Positions 2,330 through 17,348 are shown, numbered from the stretch's first letter. The stretch is 24,141 bases of DNA from Candidatus Sumerlaeia bacterium (GCA_038208905.1 JBBQYG010000052.1:1-24141); one strand, 5' to 3'. Notes: generated from the sequence alone by a model not told the origin. Made by a program: numbers and translations.

Positions 2330-3436
2330 ATGAAACCGGACTACGGCGTGGCGGTCAAGGTGGGCATCTTCTTCACCATCGCGGTGTTGATCGCGCTGGG
2401 GCTCAGCCTTCAGGTCGGTCGCAGTTCCTGGTTCTCCAAGCAATACACGCTGGAGGCCCGGTTCGTCCGCGCCCCCTCCGTGGAGGCTGGCACCAAGGTC
2501 ACCCTTCGCGGATTCCCCGTGGGCACGGTCGGGTCGCTCGATTGGGAACCCGCCACCAGCCGCATTCGTGCGGTACTCAACATCAAATCGCAGTATGAAA
2601 TTCCCTCCAACGCCGTCGCCCGTGTCCAGTCCAGCAGCTTCCTCGGTGGTTCCGTCATCGACATCGCTCTGGATCCCGAGCAGACCGTGGGTCCCGCCCT
2701 TGCGGACGGGGGCGAGATCACCACCCGCGAGGTTCCCGGTATCGAGGAGGTCCTCTCCACGGTCGGAGACCTCAGCCGCGACACCCAGGAACTTATCCAG
2801 AACCTGAACAGCAATCATGAGACGACCCTGGCCAAGGTCAACGAGGTGATCGAGGAAAACCGCGAGTACATCAGGGCGACCAGCGAATCTTTCTCGAAGG
2901 CAGGCCCCAAGCTCGAGCTGCTTTCCGACCGCCTCAACGAGATGACCGAATTCATGAAGAGCGGCGAGGGCACCATCGGCGCACTCTACGCCAACAAGGA
3001 CCTCTATGATCAAATGGTCCAGGTTTCCGAGGACGCCAAGGAAATCACCGCCCAGATCAAGTCCGGTAGCGGCGATCTTGGGGCCCTTATCTATGGGGAC
3101 CAACTCGCCGCCGACGCCAAAAAGGTCATGGCCGACCTCCAAAGCGCCGCTACCGAGGTTCAGGGCGCCGTCAGCGAGAACCGGGAAAGCATGAAGAGCC
3201 TCTTCGCCTCGCTCTCCGACGCCGGCCCCCGGATCGACAAGGCCATCTCGAACTTCAACGAGGTCTCCGAGAAGATTAACGCCGGGGAGGGAACCCTCGG
3301 CAAGCTAGTCAACGACCCCAGCCTCTACAACGACGCCAAGTCCACCATGAACCAAGTGGGCGAAAGCTTCGAGAACAGCGAGGAGCAGGGCGTATTCCGT
3401 AGCTTTCTCGGCCTTCTGTTCGGAGCGCTCATTTGA
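2330..3436 (+). CDS. mlaD: MlaD/MCE-family protein (N-terminal TM helix, MCE domain, long helical tail)
   Basis: N-terminal anchor VKVGIFFTIAVLIALGL, MCE motifs GTKVTLRGFPVGTV and IPSNAVARVQSSSFLGGSVIDI, and repeated GEGT(I/L)G(A/K)L..D..LY units in the helical tail. Confidence 0.88.
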   Translation: MKPDYGVAVKVGIFFTIAVLIALGLSLQVGRSSWFSKQYTLEARFVRAPSVEAGTKVTLRGFPVGTVGSLDWEPATSRIRAVLNIKSQYEIPSNAVARVQSSSFLGGSVIDIALDPEQTVGPALADGGEITTREVPGIEEVLSTVGDLSRDTQELIQNLNSNHETTLAKVNEVIEENREYIRATSESFSKAGPKLELLSDRLNEMTEFMKSGEGTIGALYANKDLYDQMVQVSEDAKEITAQIKSGSGDLGALIYGDQLAADAKKVMADLQSAATEVQGAVSENRESMKSLFASLSDAGPRIDKAISNFNEVSEKINAGEGTLGKLVNDPSLYNDAKSTMNQVGESFENSEEQGVFRSFLGLLFGALI

Positions 3437-3508
3437 CCCACCCGGGAACTTCGGAAAGTTTTTCCCTTCAAGGGTCTAACATCCCCTTGCGCTCCCGGGC
3501 CCTTCCCT

Positions 3509-3644: not shown

Positions 3645-4463
3645 ATGGTGATGCCATCGGAGATTCTCCAGATGGAGCGCGACTTCCTGTCCGGGAAGAA
3701 CCCTCTCGCCTACCTTCCGCTCTGCCAAGCCCTTCGCCGCCAGAATAACTTCAGCCGAGCCCTCGACCTTTGCCTCCGGGGCCTTGCCGGCGACCCCGAT
3801 TCCGTCGCCGGACGAACGCTTCACGCCCGCCTTCTGGCTGACCTTGGGCGCTACGAGGAAGGCCTTCGCGAGATCGCCCGCGTCGAGCCCATGGCCCCCG
3901 ACGCGATGGGCCTTCTCGGCGAAAAAGCGCGCATCCTCATCCGTCTGCGCCGCCTCGACGAGGCCCGCGCGGTCCTCGCCATCCTCAATCGCCGCAATCC
4001 GCTCGCGCCCGATGTTCAGGTCCTCAACGACGCCCTCCGCCAATCCGAACGTACCCAACCCCGGGGCACCGGCTCCAGCAGTGCCGACGCCGTCCCCCGC
4101 ATTGTCCGCCGGTCCTCCGCCGAGATTCTGGCGGACCTGCTCAAGGAAATGCGCTCCCTCGTCAAGATCGTCGGCGGCGCAGTCATCCCGCTTGGCGTTG
4201 GCGATCCTGCCGTGGAGGGCCGTGTCGAGCACGCCGAGCTTGCGCTTGACTACTATCGCGACGTTACCGCGGCCAGCAGGGACCTGGAAATCGGGCGAAT
4301 GCGCATGGGCTTCCTCGAAACCGAGCAGGTCCAGCTTATTGTGCTTGTCCGTGGCAAGGCCCTCGTGGCTATTTCCTTCGAGCCGATGGCGAATTTTGGT
4401 AAAGTCTACCACCGCTTTGCGTTTGCAGTGGACCGGTTGCTGCCAGAGTCCAGTGCGAGCTAA
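3645..4463 (+). CDS. TPR-repeat protein fused to a C-terminal Roadblock/LC7-like domain
   Basis: N-terminal helical repeats (AYLPLCQALRRQNNFSRALDLCLRGLAGDPDS..., ARLLADLGRYEEGL..., ARILIRLRRLDEARAVL) have the TPR pattern. The last ~115 aa align by eye with the Roadblock gene at 5489 (LEIGRMRMGFLETE...PMANFGKV vs MEQGELRSFIVETD...PDANLGLI). Start at ATG 3645 or 3651, after GGAG. Confidence 0.75.
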   Translation: MVMPSEILQMERDFLSGKNPLAYLPLCQALRRQNNFSRALDLCLRGLAGDPDSVAGRTLHARLLADLGRYEEGLREIARVEPMAPDAMGLLGEKARILIRLRRLDEARAVLAILNRRNPLAPDVQVLNDALRQSERTQPRGTGSSSADAVPRIVRRSSAEILADLLKEMRSLVKIVGGAVIPLGVGDPAVEGRVEHAELALDYYRDVTAASRDLEIGRMRMGFLETEQVQLIVLVRGKALVAISFEPMANFGKVYHRFAFAVDRLLPESSAS

Positions 4464-4487
4464 TTCCCCAGGGACCAGGGTCATCCG

Positions 4488-5429
4488 ATGACGAGTTTCG
4501 ACAAGAACCTGCTGCTCCTTCTGGTCACGATCCTGTCGCTGGTCGCGGTGGCCAGTGGGCTTTCCGGCGCGCGCCCCATCTTCGAGTTGAACCTCTCCTC
4601 CGTCGCCATCGTCGTCGGCGTCGAGTTTCTGGTTTACTTCATCGCCTCCATGGCCATGAACCAGCGCGCCACCGTCGGCATGGCGCTCGGATCCGCCGTG
4701 GCCTTCGTCATCCTCCGGTGCATATGCTCGCTCATCGGCGGCGCGGCATTCGGTATTTTTGCCGAGGCCGCCGATGGCTTCAATCCCGCGCTGGCATGGC
4801 TCAATCCCGTCGCCGCCGCCATTCAGGTCTTCACGGTGCTCGTCACCGGCCCCTACATTCTCGCCATCACGTTTCCCGACTTGATCGGCAAGGACGCGGC
4901 CCGGTCGCTTCGCGGCGGCCCCGCCGCGCCAAGCGTCTCCTCTTCGCGCTCAAGCGTCGCCATGCTGGGTTCGCTCGAGACCTCGCCCACGGGCGGCTTC
5001 ATCCAGGTCTTCTCCTACGAGGAACTTACCGGCGTCATCCGCAAGAGCCCGGGCCTCGAAGGCTTCGTCATCTACAACGAGGAAGGGCTGGTCGTCTGGA
5101 AGGACATCCCGATGAAGATCGACGTGGACGCCCTTGCCGCCCGTATCATGTCCGGCGGCACCCAGCTCGGCAGGGTGGTGCTCGATTCCGGCCTTTCCCG
5201 CCTGCGCCGCATCGCCATCGAAAGCCGCGACCACCACATCCTGAGCACCACCCTCAACCAGTCCTTCGGCATGATCATCATCTTCAGCAGCCGCACCCAG
5301 CAGGACGAGATGTTCACGCGCATCTCGATACTTTCCAAAACCGCGCGCGAGTTTCTCCAGTGGAAGTACCCGTCCCTGCCGCTGTCGACGGGGATGTCGC
5401 GGGACCGCATTGCCCTGGACATGGTTTGA
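4488..5429 (+). CDS. Membrane protein (~4 TM helices) fused to a C-terminal Roadblock/LC7 domain
   Basis: About four hydrophobic segments in the first ~130 aa, a Ser/Ala-rich linker, then a Roadblock pattern (SPGLEGFVIYNEEGLVVW...DVDALAA...SGLSRLRRIAIESRDHHIL...MIIIFS). Confidence 0.78.
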   Translation: MTSFDKNLLLLLVTILSLVAVASGLSGARPIFELNLSSVAIVVGVEFLVYFIASMAMNQRATVGMALGSAVAFVILRCICSLIGGAAFGIFAEAADGFNPALAWLNPVAAAIQVFTVLVTGPYILAITFPDLIGKDAARSLRGGPAAPSVSSSRSSVAMLGSLETSPTGGFIQVFSYEELTGVIRKSPGLEGFVIYNEEGLVVWKDIPMKIDVDALAARIMSGGTQLGRVVLDSGLSRLRRIAIESRDHHILSTTLNQSFGMIIIFSSRTQQDEMFTRISILSKTAREFLQWKYPSLPLSTGMSRDRIALDMV

Positions 5430-5454
5430 CAACGTAGCGTTTCGCAACCGACGA

Positions 5455-5472
5455 ATCCCCCGCACGGGGACG
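5455..5472 (+). repeat. Hairpin motif copy 1 (ATCCCCCGCACGGGGACG), upstream of the stand-alone Roadblock gene
   Basis: Stem TCCCC/GGGGA with loop CGCAC, immediately before the AAGGAG ribosome-binding site. A near-identical copy lies at 5839-5854. Confidence 0.6.
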
Positions 5473-5488
5473 CAAGGAGCCTCTCTCA

Positions 5489-5839
5489 ATGGACCGCATA
5501 CTGGCCGAGCTTAACAAAACACCCAACGTGGTCGGATCGTTCGTTGTCGGCTCCGACGGAATCATCGTCGCCAGCGACTTCGCCACCGAGCTCAACGACG
5601 AGGTGATGGGGGCCCTGACTTCCTCCATCATCAATTCCACCGAGAAGGCCACCAAGAAAATGGAGCAGGGCGAGCTTCGCTCCTTCATCGTGGAGACCGA
5701 CTCCAACAAGATGTTCTTCAACTCGACCCGCTCCGGTTTCCTGGTCTGCGTCTCCACCCCGGACGCCAATCTGGGCCTCATCCGCGTCGAGATGAAGACC
5801 GCCTCGGAGAAACTCGACAACGCCGTCGGCATGCGCTGA
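5489..5839 (+). CDS. Stand-alone Roadblock/LC7 protein (MglB/MglC-like paralogue)
   Basis: 116 aa with the classic pattern ILAELNKTPNVVGSFVVGSDGIIVAS...GELRSFIVET...ANLGLIRVEM; AAGGAG RBS upstream. Confidence 0.92.
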   Translation: MDRILAELNKTPNVVGSFVVGSDGIIVASDFATELNDEVMGALTSSIINSTEKATKKMEQGELRSFIVETDSNKMFFNSTRSGFLVCVSTPDANLGLIRVEMKTASEKLDNAVGMR

Positions 5840-5854
5840 TCCCCGCACGGGACG
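5839..5854 (+). repeat. Hairpin motif copy 2 (ATCCCCGCACGGGACG), upstream of mglA
   Basis: Stem TCCC/GGGA with the same CGCAC loop and flanks as 5455-5472, one G-C pair shorter. Confidence 0.6.
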
Positions 5855-5890
5855 GCGACACCTTACATCCGAAGGACCCGAACAGACTCC

Positions 5891-7108
5891 ATGGCAACCC
5901 TCAATTACGCTTTCAAGGAACTCTCCTGCAAGATCGTCTATTATGGCTGCGGCCTTTGTGGAAAAACCACGAACCTCATCCATATCCACAAGACGGTCCC
6001 CCAGAAGTTCCGTGGCGAGCTTGTATCCCTCGCCACCGAGCAGGACCGCACCCTGTTCTTCGACTTCCTCCCCCTCGACCTTGGAGAGGTGAAGGGCTTC
6101 AAGACCAAGTTCCAGCTCTACACCGTCCCCGGCCAGGTTTACTACAATGCCACCCGAAAGCTCGTCCTTCGCGGCGTGGACGGCCTTGTCTTTGTCGCCG
6201 ACAGCCAGAAGGACCGCCTTCAGGAAAACATCGATTCCCTCGAGAACCTGAAGCAGAACCTCGCCGAGTACGGCTACCGGCTGCAAACCGGCCCGTCGGA
6301 CTTCGAGGGCATCCCCTGGGTGATCCAATACAACAAGCGCGACATGCCCCAGGTCTCCGAACTTGAGGACATGCAGGTCGCCATGAACCCCAACCGCGTC
6401 CCCCACTTCGAGGCCGTCGCCGTCAACGGCAACGGCGTCAAGGATACGCTCAAGGGCATCTCTTCCCTCGTCATCAAGAAGCTCAACGCCGACCCCACCG
6501 GAGTCGGCGGCACTGCGGAACCCAAGAAGGAATCCAAGCCCGTCGCCGCAGCCGCCACGCCCTCGTCCAAGGCACCGGTCGCGGAGGACTATTCCGCGAT
6601 GAACGAGGACGACTTGGAGAAGGAGTTGGCGGAGGAGCCGAAGTCAAAGTCGGGCGCCGCTGCCTCATCGACGCCCGCCATGTCCCGGCCCAAGCCCGCC
6701 GCCCCGGCTCCCGTCGCGGAAGCACCCGCCGCCCATGCCGGAATGCCCGTCCTCAACGTCGTCCAAAAGGGCGGCGCCCGTGTCCGCGGCCTCGGCTTCG
6801 GAAGCTCGAACCTCACGCTGGCCAACATGGCCGGCGGCGACGCGGACCTCTACCAGTTGACGGGCAAGGTCTCCTTCCTGGGCATCTTCGGCTCGACGTG
6901 GAGCCGTCGCTTGCGCTTCACCGGAACCGAGGAAAAGGCCTACGGCGGAGTCGTCTCGAAGTTCTTCAAGTTTCTCTCAGACGATGGCACCGACCCCTCA
7001 CTGGAAGTCTATGTGAAGGACGATTTCGACAAACCCCTGTTCGTGAATTACCTCGGTAAGTTCGGCGAAGTGAAGATCGTACCCCCGGGCAAGGCACCCC
7101 TTGCCTGA
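5891..7108 (+). CDS. mglA: MglA-family small GTPase with a low-complexity linker and an extra C-terminal domain
   Basis: Residues 1-199 carry MglA signatures: KIVYYGCGLCGKTTNL (G1), DRTLFFDFLP (intrinsic Arg), YTVPGQVYY (G3), VDGLVFVADS and QYNKRD (G4). About 200 further residues follow. Confidence 0.95.
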   Translation: MATLNYAFKELSCKIVYYGCGLCGKTTNLIHIHKTVPQKFRGELVSLATEQDRTLFFDFLPLDLGEVKGFKTKFQLYTVPGQVYYNATRKLVLRGVDGLVFVADSQKDRLQENIDSLENLKQNLAEYGYRLQTGPSDFEGIPWVIQYNKRDMPQVSELEDMQVAMNPNRVPHFEAVAVNGNGVKDTLKGISSLVIKKLNADPTGVGGTAEPKKESKPVAAAATPSSKAPVAEDYSAMNEDDLEKELAEEPKSKSGAAASSTPAMSRPKPAAPAPVAEAPAAHAGMPVLNVVQKGGARVRGLGFGSSNLTLANMAGGDADLYQLTGKVSFLGIFGSTWSRRLRFTGTEEKAYGGVVSKFFKFLSDDGTDPSLEVYVKDDFDKPLFVNYLGKFGEVKIVPPGKAPLA

Positions 7109-7139
7109 GCGGCCGAAGGCGCAAGAAAGGAATTGAGTA

Positions 7140-7625
7140 ATGGCGAACCAGCCTCTAATCCTGACCAAGACCGAGATCACCCAGATCCACCGGGCGCTCC
7201 TGCAGATGCTTAAGCAGTCCGAGGCCAAGTGCGCGATGCTCGTCGATGCCGACGGCAAGTGCCTCGCCAAGAAGGGATTCACCTCGAACATCGACACCGA
7301 TGCCCTCGCCGCCCTGATCGCCGGTTCCTTCTCGTCCACCCGCGCCATGGCCAAGCTCGTGGGGGAAACGGACTTCTCCGTGCTCTTCCATCAGGGCACC
7401 CGCGACCACATCCACAACATCCTCGTTGATACCAACACCATCCTGACCGTGATCTTCGACGACCGCACCACCATCGGCATGGTTCGCCTCTACTCCAAGG
7501 AGAGCGCCAAGGCGCTCAAGGAAACCATCGAGGTCGCCCGTACCAAGAAGATGCCGATGGACAAGAAGCTGGCCATCGAGAAGGACGTCGAGGACCAACT
7601 CGACAACCTCTTCAAGGAAGAGTAG
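7140..7625 (+). CDS. mglB: MglB, Roadblock-domain regulator (GAP) of MglA
   Basis: Matches the myxobacterial MglB pattern along its length: N-terminal helix, LVDADG, IDTDALAALIAG, AKLVGETDFSVLFHQG, VIFDDRTTIGMVRL, and the C-terminal helix DQLDNLF. Adjacent to mglA. Confidence 0.92.
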   Translation: MANQPLILTKTEITQIHRALLQMLKQSEAKCAMLVDADGKCLAKKGFTSNIDTDALAALIAGSFSSTRAMAKLVGETDFSVLFHQGTRDHIHNILVDTNTILTVIFDDRTTIGMVRLYSKESAKALKETIEVARTKKMPMDKKLAIEKDVEDQLDNLFKEE

Positions 7626-7692
7626 CCCCACCCCGCCCCCACAGCGGTAACCGAACCGGATTGCGACCCCCACACACCGAACAGAAACGCAA

Positions 7693-8991
7693 ATGCAGGG
7701 TAATCTCAAACAGATCCAGCTCCCCGAAGTGCTCCAGTTCATCAGCATGGGCAAGAGCACCGGCCTCCTGACGATTCGCGACCCCAAGGGGAACGAGATC
7801 ACCTTGATGATCGCCTCGGGGCGCATCATCAACTCCAGTGCTCTCGACCGCCGCCGCCGTCTCGGCGAGCTCCTCGTCCAGCGCGGCATCCTCAAGCGCA
7901 GCGTCCTCTCCCAGATTCTCACTCTCCAGCGCACGATCGAGTCCGACAAGCGCCTCGGCCAGATCCTCGTGGAGCGCGACTACATTCAGGAATCCACCAT
8001 CCGCGAGGTTCTGCACCTCCAACTCGAAGAAGAAATCTGGAACCTCTTCGGACTCGATTCCGGCGAGTTCAAGTTCGACCACTGCGAGGAGTCCAAGCTC
8101 GGCGAGGCCCTCGTCCATATCGAGATCGATCCCCTCCTCATCGAGGGCACCCGCCGCCAGGACGAGTGGCGCAAGATTTCCCGCACCATCCCCGGCGACC
8201 GTGTCATCCCCACCCTCAAGGGGAACGTCCGCATCAGCGACCGTAAGGATAAGCTGCGCTTCAGCCCATCGGAATGGAAAGTCCTCGCCCAGATCAACGG
8301 GCGCACATCCATCAAGGGCGTCGTCAACCGTGCCTCCATGGGCCGTTTCGAGGTGTACCGCATCGTCGCCGAGCTCGTGGATCGCGGACTTGTCACAATC
8401 CGCGAGGTTGACCGAAACAGCGTCGAGAGTGCCCCCATGCTTTCCGCCGCCCAAACCAGTGGCGCGCACCCCATGACCACCGCCAAGACGGGTGGCGGGC
8501 TTTTTTCCATGCTTACGGGCTCGGGGCCGTCCCGCCGGGACGACCGCGCGGAGAAACTCGCGTGCGTTTCCCCCATCGGCGCCCTCTCACATCTGGTCAA
8601 TCGTCAGGTGGAGACCATTCCCCCCCCCCGCAGCGGAGAGAACGATTCGCGCCTCCTCGCCGATATCTGGGCCGATCAGGCCAGTATCTATACCAAGGCC
8701 GACCTGATCAAGGTTGATCGCGGCGCGCTCAACGCCGATCTGGCCGAAAGCTACCTGCGCCTCTTCGAATTCGGCGAGGCCGTTCAGGATTGCTACGAGG
8801 ACTCCCTCGAGGCGCTCATTCACACCGTTGACGCGCTCTACAGGATTTCCGTCGCCCGGCAGGGCGACAAGGCCGCCGCGCGCGCCATCAAGGAACTGCT
8901 CGACGACCTCGCGCCCCGCATCACCGTGACGTATGCCCGCGAATTCAAGATCGAGGAACGTATTCCGGCAACCCTCAAGATCGCCGCCTGA
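7693..8991 (+). CDS. DUF4388 (PATAN-like) protein with tandem MshEN-type c-di-GMP motifs, a winged-helix-like segment and a helical C-terminal domain
   Basis: DUF4388-type N-terminus MQGNLKQIQLPEVLQFISMGKSTGLLTI and GEFKF...LLIEGTRRQDEW. Contains RLGELLVQRGILKRSVLSQILTLQ and RLGQILVERDYIQESTIREVLHLQ, then EWKVLAQINGRTSI...ELVDRGLV. Confidence 0.88.
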   Translation: MQGNLKQIQLPEVLQFISMGKSTGLLTIRDPKGNEITLMIASGRIINSSALDRRRRLGELLVQRGILKRSVLSQILTLQRTIESDKRLGQILVERDYIQESTIREVLHLQLEEEIWNLFGLDSGEFKFDHCEESKLGEALVHIEIDPLLIEGTRRQDEWRKISRTIPGDRVIPTLKGNVRISDRKDKLRFSPSEWKVLAQINGRTSIKGVVNRASMGRFEVYRIVAELVDRGLVTIREVDRNSVESAPMLSAAQTSGAHPMTTAKTGGGLFSMLTGSGPSRRDDRAEKLACVSPIGALSHLVNRQVETIPPPRSGENDSRLLADIWADQASIYTKADLIKVDRGALNADLAESYLRLFEFGEAVQDCYEDSLEALIHTVDALYRISVARQGDKAAARAIKELLDDLAPRITVTYAREFKIEERIPATLKIAA

Positions 8992-9034
8992 CCGCGGAGT
9001 ATCCGGGAAGCCCCAAAGCGAGAGGATGGACTTC

Positions 9035-10177
9035 ATGCCTGGCGAAAGAGTACTTCTGGTGGATTCCTCCGCGGCCGTGGTCGACATGGGCAAGGCCGTG
9101 CTCGAGGAGAATGGCTACAAGGTCACCACCGCCAGCAATGGCGTGGCCGCCCTTTCCCACCCCGACCTCCAGAACTTCAACCTGATCATTGTCGAGTCCC
9201 GGCTCGACGGCGTCGATGGACTGGAAACCGCCTCTCAGATACGCACCGACGCGGAGACCTTCGGAATTCCCGTCCTCCTCCTCGTCCCCGACGATGAAAT
9301 CGAACATCGCGCCAGCCAGTCCCTGCGCGGCGCCAACGGATTCCTCGGCAAGCCCTTCAGCCCCTCCCACCTTGTGATCAAGGCCAAGGAAACCCTCGAG
9401 GAGCAGCGCCTCAAGGCCGTCTCCCACCAGTACCTCGAGGCCTCCGCCGACCATCACATGCAGGAACTCGCGGAGCAGAAGATTCAGCAGGCCGTCGAGA
9501 AGAAGATCCAGATCATCGTCGAGCGCGCGATCCAGTCGATCGTCTCCATCATCGACCAGCGCGCCAAGAAGGAGGTCGATGCCCGCGTCACCGCCCTCGT
9601 CTCCGAAAAGGAGCAGGAACTCGTCCGCATCACCGTCCAGGAAGTCGCCAAGTCCATGGTCGAGAAGATGGCCGAGAAAAAGGTCGCCGAGGCCATCGAC
9701 GCCGTCCTGATGGAAACCACCGAGAAGACCATCAAGCGCGCCGCCGACTCCATGCTCCCCTCGCTCGTCCGCGAGCGCGTCAAGGAGTCCGTCGAGAACA
9801 TTCTCCCGCGCGAGGTTCAGATAAAGGTCGAGAAGGCCACCCAGGAGAAGATGACCGAGTTTGGCGAGGCCCTCATCAACGTCATCAACATCGAGGCCAA
9901 GAAGGCCATCCCCCTCATCGCCAAGGAAAAGCTCCCCGAGATCGCCGAGCGCCAAGTCACCGTCGCCTGCGAACAGCGCATCCCCCAGCTCGTCACCGCC
10001 GAAGCCCGCGGCGCCGTCGCCAACGAACTCAACATGCGCGTGAAGCCCCTCATGGACCAGGAATCCAAGCGCATCAAGAACGTCGTCCTCATCTGGGTCT
10101 TCGCCCTCGCCATCCTCATGTGCATCCTCGTCGTCGTCCTGATGCTCATGCTTCCCCGACTCACTGCACAGGGCTAA
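9035..10177 (+). CDS. Atypical response-regulator receiver domain + long helical/coiled-coil region + C-terminal TM anchor (RomR-like architecture)
   Basis: Receiver fold RVLLVDSS...ASNG...LIIVESRLDGVDG...IPVLLL...GANGFLGKPF, then ~230 aa rich in E/K/A/V, then a hydrophobic stretch (VVLIWVFALAILMCILVVVLMLML). GAGAGG lies 9 nt before ATG 9035; an alternative start is 9026. Confidence 0.85.
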   Translation: MPGERVLLVDSSAAVVDMGKAVLEENGYKVTTASNGVAALSHPDLQNFNLIIVESRLDGVDGLETASQIRTDAETFGIPVLLLVPDDEIEHRASQSLRGANGFLGKPFSPSHLVIKAKETLEEQRLKAVSHQYLEASADHHMQELAEQKIQQAVEKKIQIIVERAIQSIVSIIDQRAKKEVDARVTALVSEKEQELVRITVQEVAKSMVEKMAEKKVAEAIDAVLMETTEKTIKRAADSMLPSLVRERVKESVENILPREVQIKVEKATQEKMTEFGEALINVINIEAKKAIPLIAKEKLPEIAERQVTVACEQRIPQLVTAEARGAVANELNMRVKPLMDQESKRIKNVVLIWVFALAILMCILVVVLMLMLPRLTAQG

Positions 10178-10324
10178 CGGCAGGAAAAAACAGCTAACGG
10201 CAGGGAGAATCGGCTAACGGCATTGAAAAGCAGGATTCTCCACCCTGCCGTTACCTACCTCAACCCTGCCTCCCCCTGCTTTTTCCTGCTGTCACCTGCC
10301 TCTCTCTGCCATTTCCTGTCTCAC
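10175..10324. repeat. Second inverted pair of degenerate 10-bp tandem arrays, between the convergent receiver gene and eutN/ccmL
   Basis: Left arm 10175-10234: TAACGGCAGG AAAAAACAGC TAACGGCAGG GAGAATCGGC TAACGGCATT GAAAAGCAGG. Right arm 10244-10324: CCTGCCGTTA CCTACCTCAA (C) CCTGCCTCCC CCTGCTTTTT CCTGCTGTCA CCTGCCTCTC TCTGCCATTT CCTGTCTCAC. Same unit family as 1074-1195. Confidence 0.85.
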
Positions 10325-10591
10325 TCCTTCGATCTCCACGCTGTCCACGATCGCCAGAATCGCCGCGTCCAACGGGCGATTCTTGACCTGAGTTCCCATG
10401 CGCGCCGAAGACCCCGTCACCACCAGCACATACTCACCCCGCCCGGCGCCGATTCCGTCGGCGGCCACTGTATAGACATCCAGTTCCTTCATGTCGGGAT
10501 TCACATGTCTCACCACCAGGAGCTTAAGCCCCTCCAGATTCACGTCCTTGCTCGTGGAGACAACCGTACCGACAACGCGACCGAGAACCAT
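10292..10591 (-). CDS. eutN: Bacterial microcompartment vertex (BMC-P) protein, EutN/CcmL family
   Basis: 99 aa: MVLGRVVGTVVSTSK..LEGLKLLVV...VAADGIGAGRGEYVLVVTGSSAR...PLDAAILAIVD. GGAGG lies 8 nt before ATG 10591. Confidence 0.95.
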   Translation of the reverse strand: MVLGRVVGTVVSTSKDVNLEGLKLLVVRHVNPDMKELDVYTVAADGIGAGRGEYVLVVTGSSARMGTQVKNRPLDAAILAIVDSVEIEGVRQEMAERGR

Positions 10592-10643
10592 GGTGACATC
10601 CTCCGGGAGTTCCCCCACCGATACCTACCCCCCTCCCCCGTGT

Positions 10644-10730
10644 CACGCCGTTTCCCCTCCGTTTCCCTGCTTTTCTCTACCTCTTCCTGTCTTTCCCTGC
10701 CGTTCCCCTTGCCGTTCACCCGGCCATTGC
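10644..10730. repeat. Third, single-orientation array of the same ~10-bp pyrimidine-rich unit
   Basis: CACGCCGTTT C CCCTCCGTTT CCCTGCTTTT CTCTACCTCT TCCTGTCTTT CCCTGCCGTT CCCCTTGCCGTTC..., located in the divergent gap between eutN and the DHDPS-like gene. Confidence 0.7.
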
Positions 10731-10786
10731 CCCATACCTCCATTATGAAAGTCCCGGGAAGGGACAGCAGCACGGAGCCACCACGC

Positions 10787-11788
10787 ATGCTTCCGCAGAT
10801 CGACACCATATCGCATCCCGTCTCCCGCCGCGATTATCCGTCTCTCCTTTGCGGAGCCATCGCCCCGCTCTTCACGCCCGAACGGCTCGACGGCCGCATC
10901 GACTACGAGGGGCTCCAGTCCCTCGCCGACCACCTCTGCCGCCAATCCGCCGTCAGCGCCCTTCTCATCCGCACCGGCGAAGGCCGCATGTGGTCCTACT
11001 CCCTGGAGGAGGCCCGTCAGGCCATCCAGTGCGTCCTCGACGTCGCCCGCCACCGCAAGCCCGTCATCGCCGGCACCGCCGGAATCTGGACCGGAGAGTG
11101 CAGCGACTCCCCCCGCCCCGCCGTCTATTACCGCCGCGCCGTCGAGCTCAGCGAGTGGGCCCTCGCCAGCGGAGCCGCCGCCGTCCTCCAGCCCGTTCCC
11201 GCGTTTCTGACCGGCGGCTATGACTATACGCCGCAGGACCGCATACTCCGCTTCTTCGAGGACCTCGCCCAGTCCGTCAACGGACCCATCGTCATCTACA
11301 ATCAAGAACACCTGCCCGAGGGCCACGCCCTGCTCCCCGAATCCCTCGCCCGCCTCAGCCAGCACCGCCAGTTCGTCGGCGCCATCTACTACACCCACGA
11401 CTCAAGCATCCTCGCCGAACTCGTCCGCTGCTGCCACCCCCGCTTCAGCGTCGTCAGCGGCTACGACAGCCTCGCCATTCCCGCATTCATGGGCGGCGCC
11501 ACCTCCAGCGCGGGCACCCTCGCCACCCTCCTCCCCGAAGTCATCGACACCGCCTGGCGCTCCCTCGCCACCCCCGACCTCTCCGTGGCCTGGCGCGCCC
11601 AAACCGACCTCCTCAAGATTCGCGAGATGCTGGCCCCCTACCAGGGGCCCGACATCGGCTGCGCCGTCCTCGCGCGCCAGGGCCTCCACATGGCCCCGCG
11701 CTCCCGCGCCGCCGGACGGCAACCCCTCCGCATCGACATCGAGCGCGTCTCCCGCGAGATCGGCCACATACGCGCCGCCTACGGCTAA
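10787..11788 (+). CDS. DHDPS/NAL-family (DapA-like) TIM-barrel protein, apparently lacking the Schiff-base lysine
   Basis: Family framework GAIAPLFT...DGRIDYEGL...PVIAGT...A.ASGAAAVL..P...FFEDLAQSVNGPIVIYN...FSVVSGYD...MGGA. VGAIYYTHD stands where VG(I/V)K(D/E)SSGD is expected. GGAG lies 9 nt before ATG 10787; an alternative start is 10745. Confidence 0.85.
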   Translation: MLPQIDTISHPVSRRDYPSLLCGAIAPLFTPERLDGRIDYEGLQSLADHLCRQSAVSALLIRTGEGRMWSYSLEEARQAIQCVLDVARHRKPVIAGTAGIWTGECSDSPRPAVYYRRAVELSEWALASGAAAVLQPVPAFLTGGYDYTPQDRILRFFEDLAQSVNGPIVIYNQEHLPEGHALLPESLARLSQHRQFVGAIYYTHDSSILAELVRCCHPRFSVVSGYDSLAIPAFMGGATSSAGTLATLLPEVIDTAWRSLATPDLSVAWRAQTDLLKIREMLAPYQGPDIGCAVLARQGLHMAPRSRAAGRQPLRIDIERVSREIGHIRAAYG

Positions 11789-11885: not shown

Positions 11886-12668
11886 GTGACCCTCCGCCGC
11901 CGCCTACGCCACACGCGCCTCTGGCAAGCCCTCCGCCCCGCGGTGTGGGAACTCCGTCGCCTCAGCCACCCGGATGGCCGGGCCATCATGCTCAACGGAA
12001 TTTGCAGAATGCGGGTCGGTCCCGGAGTGAACCTCAGCCACCCCACGCGGCCGCGCTATGAGCCCGCATACTTCCGCGCCTTCTGGAAGGCCCTTCGCCC
12101 CGGCATGACCGTCTTCGACATCGGCGCCAACCAGGGGCTCTTCGCGATTCCCGCCGGGCTTCGCGTCGGGCACACGGGGCGTATATACGCCTTCGAGCCC
12201 GCCCCCGCCGCACAGCTCGTGCTTCAGGAGCAGATCCGCCTCAACCACCTCCACCGCGTCGTCCACCCCGTCGCGTCGATTTGCGGCGCCGAGCGCGGAA
12301 TCCGCGCCCTGCACGTGGCAAGCAGCGCCGTCGGTTGGGCATCCGCCGCCGAGGCCGCCCCCGGCACGCAGTCCCTCCTCCTCCCCGTGGTCACCCTCGA
12401 CGACTTCGCCCGGCGGGTTTCCGCCGCCCCCGATGTCATCAAGATCGACGCCGAGGGAATGGAGGCCGAGGTGCTTCAGGGCGCGGCCGGCTTGCTGTCC
12501 TCCGCCCGCCCGCCCATCGTCTTCTGCGCCGTCCACCCGGGCTGCGGAGAGGCGATCGCGGAACTCGCGCGGCGACACCGCTACGCCGTCCATCGACCCG
12601 GTGGGAAACCGGTGTCGCAACTCGCGCCCGGCGAGTATATCCTTGTCCCAAGCGGGAGTACCTTGTGA
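11886..12668 (+). CDS. FkbM-family SAM-dependent methyltransferase
   Basis: Motifs LRPGMTVFDIGANQG, GRIYAFEP, VTLDDF and PDVIKIDAEGMEAEVLQGA. Confidence 0.92.
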   Translation: MTLRRRLRHTRLWQALRPAVWELRRLSHPDGRAIMLNGICRMRVGPGVNLSHPTRPRYEPAYFRAFWKALRPGMTVFDIGANQGLFAIPAGLRVGHTGRIYAFEPAPAAQLVLQEQIRLNHLHRVVHPVASICGAERGIRALHVASSAVGWASAAEAAPGTQSLLLPVVTLDDFARRVSAAPDVIKIDAEGMEAEVLQGAAGLLSSARPPIVFCAVHPGCGEAIAELARRHRYAVHRPGGKPVSQLAPGEYILVPSGSTL

Positions 12669-13813
12669 AGCCGCTGCGGATCGCCTTTCTCTGCAGCGAG
12701 TACCCTCCCGATGCGCACGGGGGGATCGGAACCGCCACCCGCGAACTGGCCCAGGGCCTTGCCGCCTGCGGCCACCGCGTCTGGGTGATCGGCCACTCCG
12801 TCCGCACCGTGCGCGAATTCGATGGGCCCGTGCGCGTCCTGCGGCTGGGGGGAAGGCCCACCGCAAACCCACGCATGGGTGCGGTGCTTGACCGTTGGAA
12901 TCTCTCGCGCACCGTGCGGACCTTTTGCCGCCGGGCACGTATAGACATCTTGGAGGTTCCCGACTGGATGGGGGAGTCGGCGTTCCTCTCCATTCCCACG
13001 CCTCCCCGATGCCCCGTCGTGATTCGGTATCACGGGGCCCAAACCACGCTCGCCCGCCTGCGCGGAGCCAGTGCAACCACCCTCACGCGCCTCCTCGAGG
13101 CGCGCGCCATCCGCCATGCCACCCACCGCGTCGCTCCCTCGCGCTTCATCGAGGCCGCCACACGCGCCGCCTTCCGCGGAACGCCACCCGCTGACTCCGT
13201 CATTCCCAACGGTATAGACACATCCCTGTTTCGGCCAGTCCCCGGCATCGTGCGCGATCAAAACCGCGTTCTCTACGTCGGGCGCCTCAGTGAGAAGAAG
13301 GGTGCCACGACCCTCGCCGCGATCCTTCCCCTTATCCTCGAACGCGACCCGCAGGCCCACCTGCACATCGTGGGAGAAAACCTCGGCGGCGCACCGCTGG
13401 AGAACCGGCTCCGCCGCAGTCTCTCAGCCGACGCGAACGCACGCCTGAACTTCCGCGGCGCCCGGCCCCATGCGGATCTTCCCGCGATCTACTCCGCCGC
13501 TACCTGCCTTCTTCTCCCCAATCGCGCCGAGTCCTTCGGCCTCGCCGCCATCGAGGCCATGGCCTGCGGCTGCATCCCCATCGTCGCCCAGCACAGCGGC
13601 CCCGCCGAGCTCATACGCCACGGTGCCAACGGATATACAGCCTCCGCCGAACGCCCGCGCGAGTTTGCGATCTGCGCGCTTCGGCTCCTCGGCGACTCGG
13701 CCACCGCCGCGAGGATGCGCCCCCATGCCATCGGGGACGCGGTCTCCACCTACGGCCGCGAAGCCATCCTCGCAGCCAACGAGTCCTTCTACGCCGGATG
13801 CCTCCGCCCATGA
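12665..13813 (+). CDS. Glycosyltransferase family 4 (GT-B fold)
   Basis: LRIAFLCSEYPP..GGIG, VIPNGID, LYVGRLSEKKG and the EX7E motif ESFGLAAIE. The GTG start overlaps the upstream stop (GTGA, 12665-12668). Confidence 0.93.
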   Translation: MKPLRIAFLCSEYPPDAHGGIGTATRELAQGLAACGHRVWVIGHSVRTVREFDGPVRVLRLGGRPTANPRMGAVLDRWNLSRTVRTFCRRARIDILEVPDWMGESAFLSIPTPPRCPVVIRYHGAQTTLARLRGASATTLTRLLEARAIRHATHRVAPSRFIEAATRAAFRGTPPADSVIPNGIDTSLFRPVPGIVRDQNRVLYVGRLSEKKGATTLAAILPLILERDPQAHLHIVGENLGGAPLENRLRRSLSADANARLNFRGARPHADLPAIYSAATCLLLPNRAESFGLAAIEAMACGCIPIVAQHSGPAELIRHGANGYTASAERPREFAICALRLLGDSATAARMRPHAIGDAVSTYGREAILAANESFYAGCLRP

Positions 13814-15366
13814 CCGCGAAGCCATCCCTCTCCAGAGAAGTCGTCGCCAACTCCGCGTGGCTCGGCGTCATGTTCGCCTTCGGCATGGCATCCGGAGCTG
13901 TCTCCACGCTACTCCTCGCCCGGATCCTCTCCACCGAGCAACTAGGTATATACGGAGGCATGGTGCGCGCCTACTCGTGGCTATGCGCCTTCGGGGTGTT
14001 CCTCCTGCCGCCCGTCCTCGTCCGCTACGTCGGCGAGCTGCGCGGCGCGGGAGCCATGCGTCAGGCTCGACTCCTCCTCGCCGCGTGCCTGCGGATTCAG
14101 TCGTTCATTGCCATCCTCGTGGTCATTCTGGGGTTCCCGGTCCTCCTCGCTTCCAACCTCGTGCTTGGAATCGACCACACGACCGCCGCTCTTCTCGTGG
14201 TGGCATTCGTTGCCTACGCATTCGGGCAGCTCTACGATGCGTGGCTGCGCGGCACCGGCGACTTCTCCCGCCTCGCCATCGCCAGCGGACTCGGCTCGGC
14301 GCTGCGCATCGTCGCGATCGGTGTCCTCTGGATCAGCGGCGCCACCGTGCCGCTCGCCCTCTTCGTCCTGCTCCTCGGCAACGCAGCCTTTCTCGGATTC
14401 GCATGGTGGTTCTCCCGCCCCGTCGCCACAGACGATCCGCGGCGTGGCAGGGTGGAGGTCCGCGGCCTCCGCAAGCGCCTCGCCGACTACGCCGCCAACA
14501 TGGGCGTCGCGGGGTTCCTCTCGCTCGTGATCTGGAACTACATCGAGGTCTTTCTCCTCGCGGGATTTCAAACCGACGCATCCCTCCTCGCGCACGAACT
14601 CGCCCTCTATACCACCGCCATCGCCATCGCCGCGCTCCCCATGCGCGTTGGAAAGACGATCAGCGGCGCCCTCCTTCCCACCTTCTCCGCCCTCTACGGA
14701 GCCAAGGACCACACGCGCATCAGGCGCGGCTATTTCCAAGCCACGATCCTCGCCACCGCCAGCGGTGGCTTCTTCTCCATCCTCCTTCTTGCCAATGTCG
14801 CGCCCGCGTTTCGGCTGCTCTTTCCAGAGAGTCTCCACGCCGCAGTCCCCCTCCTTCACCTCCTGCTGATCCCATCCATCTTTCTCGCCATCAACCACGC
14901 CGGCGGCGCGCTCCAGCTCGCGCTGGAGGGACACCGCTACGCCCTTGCCGCGATCGCCACGCTCGCCTGCGTCAACATCGCGCTCGACATTGCCCTGATC
15001 CCCGATCACGGAGCCATCGGCGCCGCCACCGTCAATGCCATCGTCCAGAGCGCCGCCGTCTGCTCCACTATCGTATATATCGCCTTTCGGCGACGCATCG
15101 GCTTTCCCTTCCGCCGCATGGCATTACTCCTCGCCACACAGGCCTTTGCCGCATCGCCGGGTCCCATAGCATCCTTTGCTGGGGCGAGCGACTCCGCCGC
15201 GCTCGCCATCGGACTCGGCACTTCCCTCCTCGCCTACATCGCGCTCCTTCGTTTCACGCCAATACTGAACGACGCGGACCGCGCCGCGATTCGTGTGGCG
15301 CTTGCAGGATCGCCCAGTGCCTTCCGCTGGATTCCGCGCCTCATTGCCGGAGCCCCGCGCCCATGA
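13810..15366 (+). CDS. wzx: Polysaccharide flippase (Wzx/MOP exporter superfamily)
   Basis: More than 12 hydrophobic segments, with LLARILSTEQLGIY, LLPTFSALYG and NIALDIALIPDHGAIGAA. ATGA overlap with the preceding gene. Confidence 0.88.
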   Translation: MTAKPSLSREVVANSAWLGVMFAFGMASGAVSTLLLARILSTEQLGIYGGMVRAYSWLCAFGVFLLPPVLVRYVGELRGAGAMRQARLLLAACLRIQSFIAILVVILGFPVLLASNLVLGIDHTTAALLVVAFVAYAFGQLYDAWLRGTGDFSRLAIASGLGSALRIVAIGVLWISGATVPLALFVLLLGNAAFLGFAWWFSRPVATDDPRRGRVEVRGLRKRLADYAANMGVAGFLSLVIWNYIEVFLLAGFQTDASLLAHELALYTTAIAIAALPMRVGKTISGALLPTFSALYGAKDHTRIRRGYFQATILATASGGFFSILLLANVAPAFRLLFPESLHAAVPLLHLLLIPSIFLAINHAGGALQLALEGHRYALAAIATLACVNIALDIALIPDHGAIGAATVNAIVQSAAVCSTIVYIAFRRRIGFPFRRMALLLATQAFAASPGPIASFAGASDSAALAIGLGTSLLAYIALLRFTPILNDADRAAIRVALAGSPSAFRWIPRLIAGAPRP

Positions 15367-17348
15367 TCACTGCACGCGATTTCACCATCGTCATCCCCAC
15401 CTATCGGCGTGAGTCTGTCCTCCTCGACACCATCGAATCCGTCCTCGCGCTCGACCCCGCGCCCCTCGAGATCGTTGTGGTCGATCAGACTCCGCGCCAC
15501 GACTCCGCCACCGCGGAACGCCTCCAGGATATCTCGCGCTCGAAACGCATTCGCCTCATCCACGAGCCCACTCCCAACCTCCCCCGCGCCCGGAATATCG
15601 GAATCCACAGCGCCACCGGCCGCATCGCCCTTTTCCTCGATGACGATGTACTCGTCCGCCCCAACTTCCTTGAGCTGCACCTCCGCCACTATGCCGACGA
15701 CAATGTCGCCGGCGTCAGTGGTCGCATCGTTTTCCCCGGAGAGAACCCCGACACACCACGTCCACTTCCGATGTCCGCGGCGCTTGCCGCCAATCGCCTC
15801 GACCTGCAAGTCATGCGCTATACTACGCCGATTCCCAACGTGCTCCACGTCGTCGGCGCCAACATGAGCTATCGCCGCTGCTGGATCGAGCGCGTCGGCG
15901 GATTCTCTCACCGCTTCACTGGCAACGCCCTCGCGGAGGACGTCGATTTCGCAGCCCGCGTCCGCCGCGCTGGCGGAGCGATCCGCTACGACCCCGACGC
16001 ATGGCTGGTTCACCGCGCCACTCCCGACGGCGGCTGTCGCGCGCCCTCGAACAAATCGTCTAGCGCCATGCGGGCCTTCTCCACCAGCCGCGCCCGCATG
16101 AGGAACTACTACTTCATGCTCGCCCACGGCGTGGGCCCTTGCGGCGCGATTCCCGCCATCAAGAACCGGCTGACACCCTCTCGCGTCGACATCGACGCCG
16201 TCGCCAGCGCGACTCCATCCGCTTTTCGCACGCCATCCCAGAGAATCTTCTCCGCCGCTGGCCGCGTCACAGGCGCCTGTCAGGGCCTTGCATCGGGCCT
16301 ACTCGCACCCGGTGGGGGAGACCTCCGTCGAGCCCCGCGGCGCGCTGGCCCCCGCGCTGCGATGTGCACCATCTCAATCGTCATCGCCACCTACGAGCGT
16401 GCTGGCGCACTCCACACGGCGCTCCTTTCACTCGCCGCCCAGGACGAACCCATCGAGGAGGTTATCGTCGTTGATCAATCCCGTAATCCAACCGATCCAT
16501 CACTCCCTGCGCTCGGGGCCATCCAGCGTATTGTCTATACAGTTCTGTCCCGTCCCAGCGCATCCGCCGCGCGCAACGCTGGCGTCGCCCTCGCGCGGGG
16601 CGAAGTCATCCTCTTCGTGGACGACGACGTGACCGTCCTGCCCGACCTTGTGCGCCGCCATCGGTCCCGCTACGCCGATCCCCGCGTCTCCGCCGTGGGA
16701 GGGCGAATCGCGTGGTCCGGCTGCGATCCGCGCCATGCGTCGCCCTTTCCCGGCCCTCGCGCCGCGATGCGGAACCATCCCGAGGCGCCCGTCTGCTACC
16801 ACGCAACCCCGGCAGTGGGGCCGCTGCACTTAATCACCTGCAACTTCTCCGTGAGGCGTGACTGGTTCGTTGCCGTTGACGGCTTCAATGAACGCCTTTC
16901 CGGCTATGGTGAAGATCTCGAACTCGTGGCGCGCCTCCGCCGCGCCGGCGCGTTGCTCCTCTACGATCCCCGCGCCGCCCTCGTCCATCACTCCGCCCCC
17001 GTCGGCGGAATCCGTCTCTCTACGGTCAACCCACTTCGCTTCGGATTCCGCCGCGGCTGGGCTCACCACTACTCCTATCTGCGCAGTGTTGGCCTTCTCG
17101 GCCACGCCGCCGCCACGGTAAGGCGGCTCACCGCAGCAATTGGCCGTTACACATCCGCCAGCGCCCCATCCGATGGCCCCGTCGCCCAAGTAACCCGCAA
17201 TCGCGGCCGCTCCGCCGCTCTCTCCTATAAGGCGCTCGCCCTGGCGGGGTCGGCCTTCGCGTATCCCCTCGCCCTTGCCACGTATATACGCGACACTCGC
17301 TACGGCGGAGACTATCGCCGCCATGCGGAGGACCACCGCGATGGCTGA
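15363..17348 (+). CDS. Tandem GT2-GT2 glycosyltransferase fusion (661 aa)
   Basis: Two complete GT-A domains: TIVIPTYRR...FLDDD...GANMS...AEDVDF and SIVIATYER...FVDDD...TCNFS...GEDLEL. The ATG at 15363 overlaps the wzx stop; the second domain begins near 16362. Confidence 0.9.
   Translation: MITARDFTIVIPTYRRESVLLDTIESVLALDPAPLEIVVVDQTPRHDSATAERLQDISRSKRIRLIHEPTPNLPRARNIGIHSATGRIALFLDDDVLVRPNFLELHLRHYADDNVAGVSGRIVFPGENPDTPRPLPMSAALAANRLDLQVMRYTTPIPNVLHVVGANMSYRRCWIERVGGFSHRFTGNALAEDVDFAARVRRAGGAIRYDPDAWLVHRATPDGGCRAPSNKSSSAMRAFSTSRARMRNYYFMLAHGVGPCGAIPAIKNRLTPSRVDIDAVASATPSAFRTPSQRIFSAAGRVTGACQGLASGLLAPGGGDLRRAPRRAGPRAAMCTISIVIATYERAGALHTALLSLAAQDEPIEEVIVVDQSRNPTDPSLPALGAIQRIVYTVLSRPSASAARNAGVALARGEVILFVDDDVTVLPDLVRRHRSRYADPRVSAVGGRIAWSGCDPRHASPFPGPRAAMRNHPEAPVCYHATPAVGPLHLITCNFSVRRDWFVAVDGFNERLSGYGEDLELVARLRRAGALLLYDPRAALVHHSAPVGGIRLSTVNPLRFGFRRGWAHHYSYLRSVGLLGHAAATVRRLTAAIGRYTSASAPSDGPVAQVTRNRGRSAALSYKALALAGSAFAYPLALATYIRDTRYGGDYRRHAEDHRDG

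Follow-up and report, generated by a model that had tools for sequence, protein, structure and literature searches.

Whether a small GTPase of the MglA type, its Roadblock regulators, a candidate receptor for cyclic di-GMP (c-di-GMP) and a receiver protein may be parts of a single signalling system is the question raised by seven genes lying side by side in a stretch of 24,141 nucleotides (nt) from a Candidatus Sumerlaeia bacterium (GCA_038208905.1, JBBQYG010000052.1:1-24141; the whole stretch is referred to as the window). The genes, labelled G1 to G7 from 5′ to 3′, lie on the + strand between positions 3645 and 10177. An earlier, sequence-only reading had described them as seven co-directional genes with gaps of 24–67 nt, and the list of open reading frames (ORFs) confirmed this, with intergenic gaps of 24, 59, 51, 31, 67 and 43 nt in turn from G1 to G7. 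Likewise, each of its domain calls was confirmed or supported by profile matches (Pfam, NCBIfam and profile–profile comparison), and an MglA/MglB pair was found in one locus with additional Roadblock proteins, a tetratricopeptide repeat (TPR) protein and a candidate c-di-GMP receptor. On balance, it appears somewhat probable that the seven genes form one conserved Sumerlaeota signalling operon around a paralogous MglA-type small GTPase, with the roles and the coupling proposed below.

The conservation of the locus was examined in two surveys. The G7 alignment was run against a single genome of each GTDB species and gave 45 loci from other species, 43 of which derive from Candidatus Sumerlaeota, Sumerlaeia or candidate division BRC1 and two from a "bacterium", and the gene content of the loci was read with hidden Markov models (HMMs) built from orthologue alignments. 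The seven-gene order of the window recurs in 25 of the 45 loci, and nine more are cut by contig ends yet consistent with it; of the remainder, one contains only G4, G6 and G7, and ten contain just G6 and G7, preceded by 3.6 kb or more of unrelated DNA. The second survey, which overlaps the first in genomes, comprised 20 loci fetched around G4 homologues, and 14 of these carry all seven genes in the window order. Since the gene order is conserved in other species, the grouping is more than a chance arrangement, and the view of the seven genes as a conserved unit stood. Within the family to which the window belongs, identity to the window proteins is about 89% for G5, 79–86% for G3, 66–69% for G4 and 68–69% for G7, with 50–54% for G6 and 45–50% for G1 and G2.

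The components differ in their spread across 75 species genomes of the phylum. G7 (E ≤ 1e-25), counted as the G6–G7 pair, was detected in 66 genomes, the barrel domain of G4 (E ≤ 1e-3) in 49 and G2 (E ≤ 1e-5) in 36. G6 and G7 are adjacent in every locus that has both, including lineages that lack the other five genes (families f11, f15, f17 and f18, in varied contexts), and the neighbours of lone G4 and lone G6–G7 loci are housekeeping genes or varied. One family (f13) has none of G7, barrel and G2 in its seven genomes, with no MglA match in the two of them that were searched. In another class, genome G041 has G7, no barrel-bearing MglA and a lone homologue of G2 with four transmembrane (TM) segments and a Roadblock domain (L078:5867-6775, − strand; E 2.4e-32), which lies among radical-SAM/AAA+ genes. 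The pattern is that of a layered system, in which the G6–G7 pair is the most widespread layer, one class has gained the barrel-bearing MglA, and some members of that class the Roadblock/TPR/MglB set as well; losses elsewhere are the alternative, the comparison being unrooted.

Features of the window, listed for the seven-gene operon and then for its flanks (positions in nt from the first letter of the window)
Feature	Position	Strand	Description	Basis or remark
G1	3645..4463	+	272 residues; TPR repeats (about residues 19-126) and C-terminal Roadblock-like domain (about 160-264)	
G2	4488..5429	+	313 residues; polytopic membrane protein with C-terminal Roadblock domain (about 178-290)	
G3	5489..5839	+	116 residues; stand-alone Roadblock/LC7 protein	Robl_LC7 46.1 bits, above cut-off
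G4, whole gene	5891-7108	+	405 residues	
G4, N-terminal domain	5891..6487	+	MglA-type GTPase, residues 1-199	phmmer against Myxococcus xanthus MglA 5ymx, E 3.1e-72
G4, linker	6488..6748	+	Ala/Pro/acidic low-complexity linker, length varies among orthologues	alignment columns 200-355
G4, C-terminal domain	6749..7105	+	conserved eight-stranded up-and-down beta-barrel, ~119 residues	AlphaFold2
G5	7140..7625	+	161 residues; MglB (Roadblock domain and C-terminal helix), presumed GTPase-activating protein (GAP) of G4	
G6	7693..8991	+	432 residues; PATAN/DUF4388 domain (residues 1-160)	Pfam, NCBIfam, AlphaFold2
G6, insertion	7840-8037	+	MshEN/GSPII-type helical insertion, residues 50-115	inside the PATAN domain
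G6, further parts			winged helix (about 163-240), disordered linker (243-285), helical C-terminal domain (289-428)	
G7	9035..10177	+	380 residues; receiver (1-120), conserved long helical region (about 121-345), one C-terminal TM helix	
G7, TM helix	10082-10138	+	~12 residues from the C-terminus; tail-anchored topology	hydropathy
MlaD-family gene	2330-3436	+	upstream of G1, same strand as the operon	
Terminator-like hairpin and T-run	3442..3454	+	directly after the MlaD stop codon; possible upstream operon boundary	pattern scan; weak
EutN/CcmL microcompartment-vertex gene	10292-10618	-	convergent to the operon	93 bits
Long ORF	10223-11788	+	overlaps the EutN gene; dihydrodipicolinate synthase (DHDPS)-like in C-terminal part only (from about 10850)	
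Polysaccharide gene run	12281-23358	+	three GT4 glycosyltransferases, 1292-residue protein with GT2 domains, Wzy/O-antigen-ligase-like protein, YfhO-like membrane protein	

The GTPase at the centre of the operon, G4, departs from the size of single-domain MglA proteins (about 195–200 residues) by a 206-residue extension that follows the GTPase domain. Residues 1–199 align collinearly with M. xanthus MglA (5ymx), and the P-loop GxxxxGK[ST] is present at G19–T27, with G19, G24, K25, T26 and T27 invariant among 20 orthologues. The same alignment shows no variation at T78, G81 and Q82, and R53 occurs in at least 90% of its sequences; applying the numbering of M. xanthus MglA to G4, we take T78, Q82 and R53 to be the Thr of the TxxGQ G3 motif, the catalytic Gln and the intrinsic Arg (arginine finger), respectively. 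A second, short MglA is present in most genomes. In the genome of the window it lies on another contig (C274:1274-2510) and is followed by a Roadblock (MglB-like) gene of its own, which narrowly misses the Robl_LC7 cut-off with 22.5 bits.

The C-terminal domain of G4 was modelled with AlphaFold2 from 33 orthologues as a barrel, with a predicted local distance difference test (pLDDT) score of 92.9 and a predicted template modelling (pTM) score of 0.87. Foldseek returned nothing for it at E ≤ 0.001 in the PDB, and VIA-align returned generic eight-stranded barrels only, with a de novo TM barrel on top (Z 10.0) and BF2706 at Z 9.1. The barrel of the cyclic-dinucleotide receptor Cap15 (7n34; Z 8.9, root-mean-square deviation (rmsd) 3.2, 101 residues aligned) tied with OmpA-like and other outer-membrane barrels. 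As no match stands out, we make no specific claim of homology or ligand for this domain. When its profile was run against 1.84 billion representative proteins (E ≤ 0.001; a library without taxonomy), 44 matches were obtained, of which 37 look real and seven are repeat proteins with weak per-domain scores in an HMM scan. The 37 comprise 19 full-length MglA–barrel proteins, seven truncated ones (the end of MglA and the barrel) and 11 fragments that begin in the tail of the MglA domain, in the linker or in the barrel. In the 1.84 billion proteins, the barrel therefore occurred in fusions with MglA or in fragments, and no other partner domain was seen.

Around this GTPase the operon appears to encode four Roadblock domains, in G1, G2, G3 and G5, a count supported by profile comparison. 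G5 matched Robl_LC7 above the cut-off (43 bits), and its profile matched M. xanthus MglB (6izw_B) at E 7.9e-34 over residues 5–160, that is, over the full length of the protein. It starts 31 nt 3′ of G4, next to which it is also found in 15 of the 20 loci of the second survey. G3 is 74–87% identical within the order; its closest solved relative is the Roadblock protein 7yh1_D (E 1.2e-16), MglB being reached at 4.6e-5 only. The entry 7yh1 belongs, according to the available part of the source, to work on the Roadblock proteins of Asgard archaea (PMC10933270).

The two remaining Roadblock domains are fused to other parts. G1 is a TPR protein by Pfam, with TPR families above their cut-offs (TPR_19, 38.7 bits against 25) and matched in all 14 orthologues. 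Pfam made no Roadblock call on the C-terminal ~110 residues of G1; these aligned to the G3 profile with 90.5% probability (hhalign; E 1.4e-6 over 102 columns), and the G1 profile matched 7yh1_D at E 2e-5 over residues 160–264. In G2, the window protein itself stayed below the Robl_LC7 (PF03259) cut-off of 23 (16.2 bits, E 0.0088); the family was matched at E ≤ 0.1 by 12 of 14 orthologues, the best at E 1.2e-8, and the G2 profile aligned to that of G3 with 87.4% probability. The sequence-only reading had seen G2 as a Roadblock protein with a TM anchor. The membrane Roadblock stood, and the single anchor did not, since hydropathy gave four hydrophobic segments (residues 8–26, 39–57, 65–83 and 101–127), as expected of a polytopic protein. 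E46, Y50 and R77 are invariant polar residues inside this membrane part in the orthologue alignment. Hydropathy also agreed with the claim that two components, G2 and G7, have membrane segments of their own.

G6 matched DUF4388/PATAN (PF14332) with 103.1 bits against a cut-off of 25, over profile positions 1–122, and the NCBIfam model for an MshE-related c-di-GMP motif (NF053729) with 39.5 bits against 38. Its AlphaFold2 model (38 orthologues, pLDDT 86.8) shows a PATAN beta/alpha core that is broken by four helices at residues 54–119. The insertion superposed on c-di-GMP-bound MshE (5htl_B; Z 8.7, rmsd 2.9, 60 residues aligned, 33% identity) and on the c-di-GMP-bound GSPIIB domain of Thermus PilF (8pfa_B; Z 8.4, rmsd 2.2, 57 residues aligned, 37% identity), and the N-domains of XpsE and PilB also align with the four helices. 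Domains of the MshEN type carry two tandem RLGxx(L/I/V)(L/I/V)xxG...Q-type motifs. The first is well kept among the 38 orthologues of G6, with [RK]56, G58 and Q79 in 37, L61 in 38, G65 in 35 and L76 within 35–38; in the second, G89, L92 and Q110 are kept in 37 and the central Gly in 12 only, which leaves this motif partly degenerate. By analogy with the ligand-bound structures, G6 may be regarded as a candidate c-di-GMP receptor. In the genome of the window, four GGDEF matches and 17 matches to T2SSE-type ATPases were counted.

The winged helix of G6 resembles that of GATOR1 subunits (Z 9.0–9.2); because ordinary winged helices also resemble it (Z 5–7), the match shows the fold only. The C-terminal domain matched no Pfam family and gave weak, helical structural matches with Z up to 7.5. 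The order of elements in the PATAN core (residues 1–49 and 116–160; window 7693–8172), namely strand, helix, three strands, the insertion, strand and helix, recalls the sandwiches of Roadblock and longin proteins, and in GATOR1 subunits the winged helix follows a longin domain as that of G6 follows the PATAN core. A likeness of the PATAN core to Roadblock/longin domains is only an idea, for the rows of the structure search barely covered residues 1–49 and 116–160. Two further PATAN/DUF4388 matches were found in the genome of the window (C22:23543-23830 and C261:2581-2853), both without the long helical insertion as judged by match length.

G7 matched Response_reg (PF00072) with 61.1 bits against 30.2. 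An alternative start at 9026 is possible, but 9035 corresponds to the first residue of the orthologues. The sequence-only reading had taken G7 for a pseudo-receiver, a view that did not survive a census of 50 distinct orthologues, in which the phospho-acceptor position 54 is Asp in 47, Glu in two and Ala in one, a Sumerlaeaceae-type copy (L067). Glu54 (window 9194–9196) is confined to the window copy and one close relative (L038), and may represent a lineage-specific locked state. Because 47 of the 50 orthologues keep the Asp, the family is not one of pseudo-receivers. Judged by its residues, it is better described as an atypical form of receiver for which phosphorylation may still be possible. 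Asp occupies the first acidic position in 47 of 50 sequences and the receiver Lys, K106, is invariant (50/50); at the second acidic position, Asp is found in 15 only. Residues 83–84, which we matched by eye to Thr87 of CheY and presume to be the position of the conserved Thr/Ser, are hydrophobic in 50 of 50. The window copy itself does not combine an acceptor Asp, a second acidic residue and a Thr/Ser, as a canonical receiver would.

In RomR, a Pro-rich linker joins the receiver to a C-terminal region rich in Glu. G7 has neither a Pro-rich nor a Glu-rich region; it shares the receiver alone, which is followed by the conserved helical region and the TM helix, and the proposal that it is a RomR analogue was not upheld. 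In its helical region Pfam gave sub-threshold noise only and the Atlas no usable match. Two genes next to G6–G7 in other genomes may be mentioned here. In a genome of family f15, the gene directly upstream of the pair (L079:6465-8564, − strand) encodes a PAS-PAS hybrid histidine kinase that ends in a receiver and is a possible phospho-donor of G7 there. In a metagenome-assembled genome of the Sumerlaeaceae, the divergent gene upstream of the pair (L068:3952-7434, − strand) encodes a 1160-residue fusion of Hsp70, TPR and a Ser/Thr kinase.

For the invariably adjacent pair G6–G7, the complex of full-length G6 with residues 1–350 of G7 was modelled. It scored 0.80 (three runs, 0.81, 0.80 and 0.80), compared with 0.00 for the best of three controls, the score being the confidence of the model, here from our own, shallow alignments (16 and 15 rows). 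Of 157 solved complexes, 116 attain a mark of 0.80, as do two of 215 mismatched pairs; these counts hold only roughly for G6–G7, because its alignments were our own. The runs share at least 97% of their contacts, with partner pLDDT of at least 71. In the model, the winged helix (174–233) and the C-terminal domain (334–371) of G6 lie on residues 11–25, 32–43, 57–72 and 106–110 of G7, which are the loops around the receiver phosphorylation site.

The interface is made of the best-conserved residues of the two proteins. On the G6 side, D337 is kept in 38 of 38 orthologues, A336 in 37 and [KR]335 in 36; on the G7 side, K106-P107 is kept in 50 of 50, A33, N35 and G36 are invariant, and position 12 is Ser in 44 and Asn in six. 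The model thus supports binding of G6 to the active-site face of the G7 receiver. To our knowledge, no complex like that of G6 and G7 has been solved.

From these observations the following mechanism can be proposed. G4 would act as a GTP/GDP switch, with G5, as MglB, its putative GTPase-activating partner. G3, G1 and G2 would pair into a platform of Roadblock dimers at the inner membrane, which would recruit or regulate G4. G6 and G7 would form a stable membrane complex, in which G6 would cover the phosphorylation face of G7 with its winged-helix and C-terminal domains. The MshEN-type insertion would let G6 sense c-di-GMP, and G7 may additionally receive a phosphoryl signal; the pair would then couple the level of the second messenger to the place or time of action of the GTPase. 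The likeliest target would be a type IV pilus or a related secretion ATPase machine.

The mechanism draws on several characterised systems. The polarity module of M. xanthus (MglA, MglB, MglC, RomR/RomX, SgmX and FrzS) likewise contains an MglA-type GTPase, with the residues corresponding to R53, T78 and Q82, and an MglB, here encoded next to it. As far as the available text of PMC11580455 goes, MglA works there with the TPR protein SgmX and with FrzS, a pseudo-receiver/coiled-coil protein. Both systems also include a TPR protein, an additional Roadblock protein and a receiver that leads into a long helical stretch; in architecture, G7 is closer to FrzS-type partners than to RomR. In contrast to the M. 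xanthus module, the GTPase here carries a linker and a barrel, TPR repeats and a Roadblock domain share one polypeptide, another Roadblock protein is integral to the membrane, the receiver protein has a tail anchor and in most orthologues retains its Asp, and all parts lie in one operon. In Bdellovibrio bacteriovorus, as described in the accessible part of PMC3983030, MglA works with the TPR protein Bd2492, RomR and the c-di-GMP receptor CdgA, a hub that combines the same four kinds of component. There, MglB has been lost and the receptor is a degenerate protein of the GGDEF type; here, the operon includes MglB, and the candidate receptor is an MshEN-type insertion within a PATAN protein.

As in cyanobacterial regulators of the PatA type (PatA, PixG, PixE and LsiR), a PATAN domain is here predicted to work with a receiver domain, through binding. 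Unlike in those regulators, the two domains are on two polypeptides, encoded by separate ORFs in every locus scanned (43 nt apart in the window), the predicted contact runs through the winged-helix and C-terminal domains of G6 and not through the PATAN core, and the receiver protein is membrane-anchored. The insertion of G6 resembles the MshEN/GSPII domains of MshE and Thermus PilF in its tandem motifs and in the identity to their ligand-bound structures given above, and differs from them in being inserted into a PATAN domain and not placed at the N-terminus of a secretion ATPase, with motif 2 degenerate. Membrane-associated Roadblock proteins also partner a small GTPase in the Streptomyces conservon (CvnA-D) and in the eukaryotic Ragulator–Rag system. 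In what the sources make available on these systems the likeness is architectural only, and they differ from the present operon, in which a histidine kinase and CvnC are absent and the anchor is within the Roadblock protein itself and not in a LAMTOR1-like subunit.

The linkage of MglA and MglB to PATAN proteins is itself known. According to the available text of Wuichet & Sogaard-Andersen (PMC4316618), some group 1 and group 5 mglA genes lie near PATAN genes, and Makarova et al. 2006 is cited there for MglB–PATAN neighbourhoods. Likewise, the part of a bioRxiv report that is at hand (10.1101/2021.06.11.447907) states that MglA/MglB genes are regularly found near PATAN genes, that some DUF4388 proteins are annotated GspE_N, and that PATAN domains of Synechocystis bind PilB1 and PilC. 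Since this linkage is published, the operon elaborates a known theme and is not of an undescribed kind. The suggestion of an undescribed system stood in another respect, in that a literature search whose scope left out subscription journals and supplements, including that of PMC4316618, found neither the seven-gene architecture nor an MglA–barrel fusion nor a membrane- or TPR-fused Roadblock protein. A search with the same limit to journals outside subscription found no paper that names both Sumerlaeota and MglA. The operon is a lineage-specific elaboration of the MglA/MglB–PATAN theme, and its original features are the tethered barrel, the two Roadblock fusions and the split, membrane-anchored PATAN–receiver pair.

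Several observations weigh against one operon with a common task as proposed. At the level of the proteins, G5 matched the NCBIfam MglB equivalog NF052242 at E 1e-22 with 80.9 bits, below the 200-bit cut-off of a model built on Thermus-type MglB; the Roadblock domains of G1 and G2 show no resemblance to the MglB profile (0.3% and 4.2%, hhalign); and the partly degenerate second motif of G6 and the shallow alignments behind the G6–G7 model belong on the same side. At the level of the genomes, family f15 has G7 in six of seven genomes, the barrel in none of the seven and no G2, and thus G6–G7 without barrel; of the 13 genomes of family f7, 11 have the barrel, 12 have G7 and none has G2, and G4 lies there away from G6–G7 and among housekeeping genes, alone between an MFS (major facilitator superfamily) transporter gene and BshC/rpoB. 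The picture of a signalling hub is borne out as far as the conserved unit goes; it is not indivisible, for in the ten loci with G6–G7 alone the extended MglA lies elsewhere. Together with the unequal spread of G7, barrel-bearing MglA and G2 across the 75 genomes, the lone G6–G7 pairs, with those at the additional loci of f11, f15, f17 and f18, and the solitary G4 of f7 would fit two independent systems side by side, an old G6–G7 signalling pair and a separate G1–G5 module that are neighbours in part of the phylum without cooperating. We consider this unlikely. Where G4 and G6–G7 share a locus they are always co-directional, with nothing except G5 detected between them; G4 directly precedes G6 in two loci (L022 and L027), and a third (L029) reads G4-G5-G6-G7. 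The adjacency, moreover, extends over eight or more families of the class, and the MglA/MglB–PATAN neighbourhood recurs in other phyla, as far as the available parts of PMC4316618 and 10.1101/2021.06.11.447907 describe.

A further point against the proposal concerns its output. Pilus and motility genes were absent from the window flanks, where a domain scan agreed with the sequence-only reading, and, at 11 related loci, from the 34 neighbouring ORFs that were scanned. PilM is present in 75 of 75 genomes, and the phyletic pattern is therefore uninformative on a link to pili. The operon could accordingly work as proposed with another target, in the envelope, polysaccharide synthesis or cell division, and this would suit the same-strand MlaD-family gene upstream of G1 in the window and in four of 20 related loci (L015, L016, L017 and L020), the large glycosyltransferase/Wzy cluster downstream, and the activity of MglA-family GTPases and PATAN proteins outside motility, of which PatA in heterocyst patterning is an example in the accessible text of 10.1101/2021.06.11.447907. 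Such a target is nevertheless distinctly unlikely in our view: the MlaD linkage is limited to the order of the window, the convergent EutN gene stands between the operon and the glycosyltransferases, and the experimental partners of PATAN and MglA so far are mostly pilus-motor components, going by the available parts of PMC11580455, 10.1101/2021.06.11.447907 and PMC3983030. The role of the additional Roadblock proteins can also be read otherwise, as alternative GAPs or guanine nucleotide exchange factors that compete with MglB for G4 and form no scaffold, the membrane and TPR parts only tuning nucleotide cycling. Roadblock dimers are known regulators of MglA-type GTPases in what PMC4316618 and PMC10933270 make available, and the very strong conservation of G3 within the order would agree with such a role; the lack of profile similarity of the G1 and G2 domains to MglB, and the fact that the closest solved relative of G3 is an archaeal Roadblock protein whose partner is unknown, make it highly improbable.

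Within the proposal of one operon around G4, a bolder joint reading may be put forward, which in its full form we regard as speculative and doubtful. A membrane Roadblock platform of G2, G1 and G3 would hold G4, whose tethered barrel would be a new effector domain for binding a ligand or partner. The c-di-GMP-sensing G6 would clamp the active site of the tail-anchored G7 and thereby gate the assembly, with the loop of the invariant Asp337 complementing or blocking a receiver without the usual second acidic residue. The whole would be an architectural bacterial counterpart of Ragulator–Rag and, if this were true, a previously unseen merging of second-messenger, phosphorylation and G-protein signalling at the membrane. 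For the MglA field, the locus of this uncultured phylum adds a GTPase with a covalently tethered barrel, together with fusions of Roadblock domains to TPR and to a membrane domain. Should the G6–G7 model be true, it would give a first structural idea of how PATAN, c-di-GMP and receiver are coupled, a coupling that is still open for the cyanobacterial PatA-type regulators and for the MglA–PATAN neighbourhoods of other phyla.

The operon is set in DNA of about 60–70% G+C. The stretch is known from freshwater, mat and sediment habitats, and no RNA run was listed among the sequencing runs that contain it. A gap of 208 nt, within which the terminator-like hairpin lies, separates the MlaD-family gene from G1; the window holds eight such terminator-like sites against 5.5 ± 2.7 in shuffled sequences, which is no enrichment. 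The pattern scan of the window gave no sigma-70-like promoter site, and no Rfam family reached its gathering score anywhere in the window. Downstream, the operon is closed by the convergent EutN gene, which is a lone shell gene in that no second microcompartment shell gene was seen in the window. The true start of the DHDPS-like ORF that overlaps it is probably downstream of EutN, because only the C-terminal part of this ORF is DHDPS-like. The other genes of the window include those for ThiG and for a DUF6798 membrane protein.

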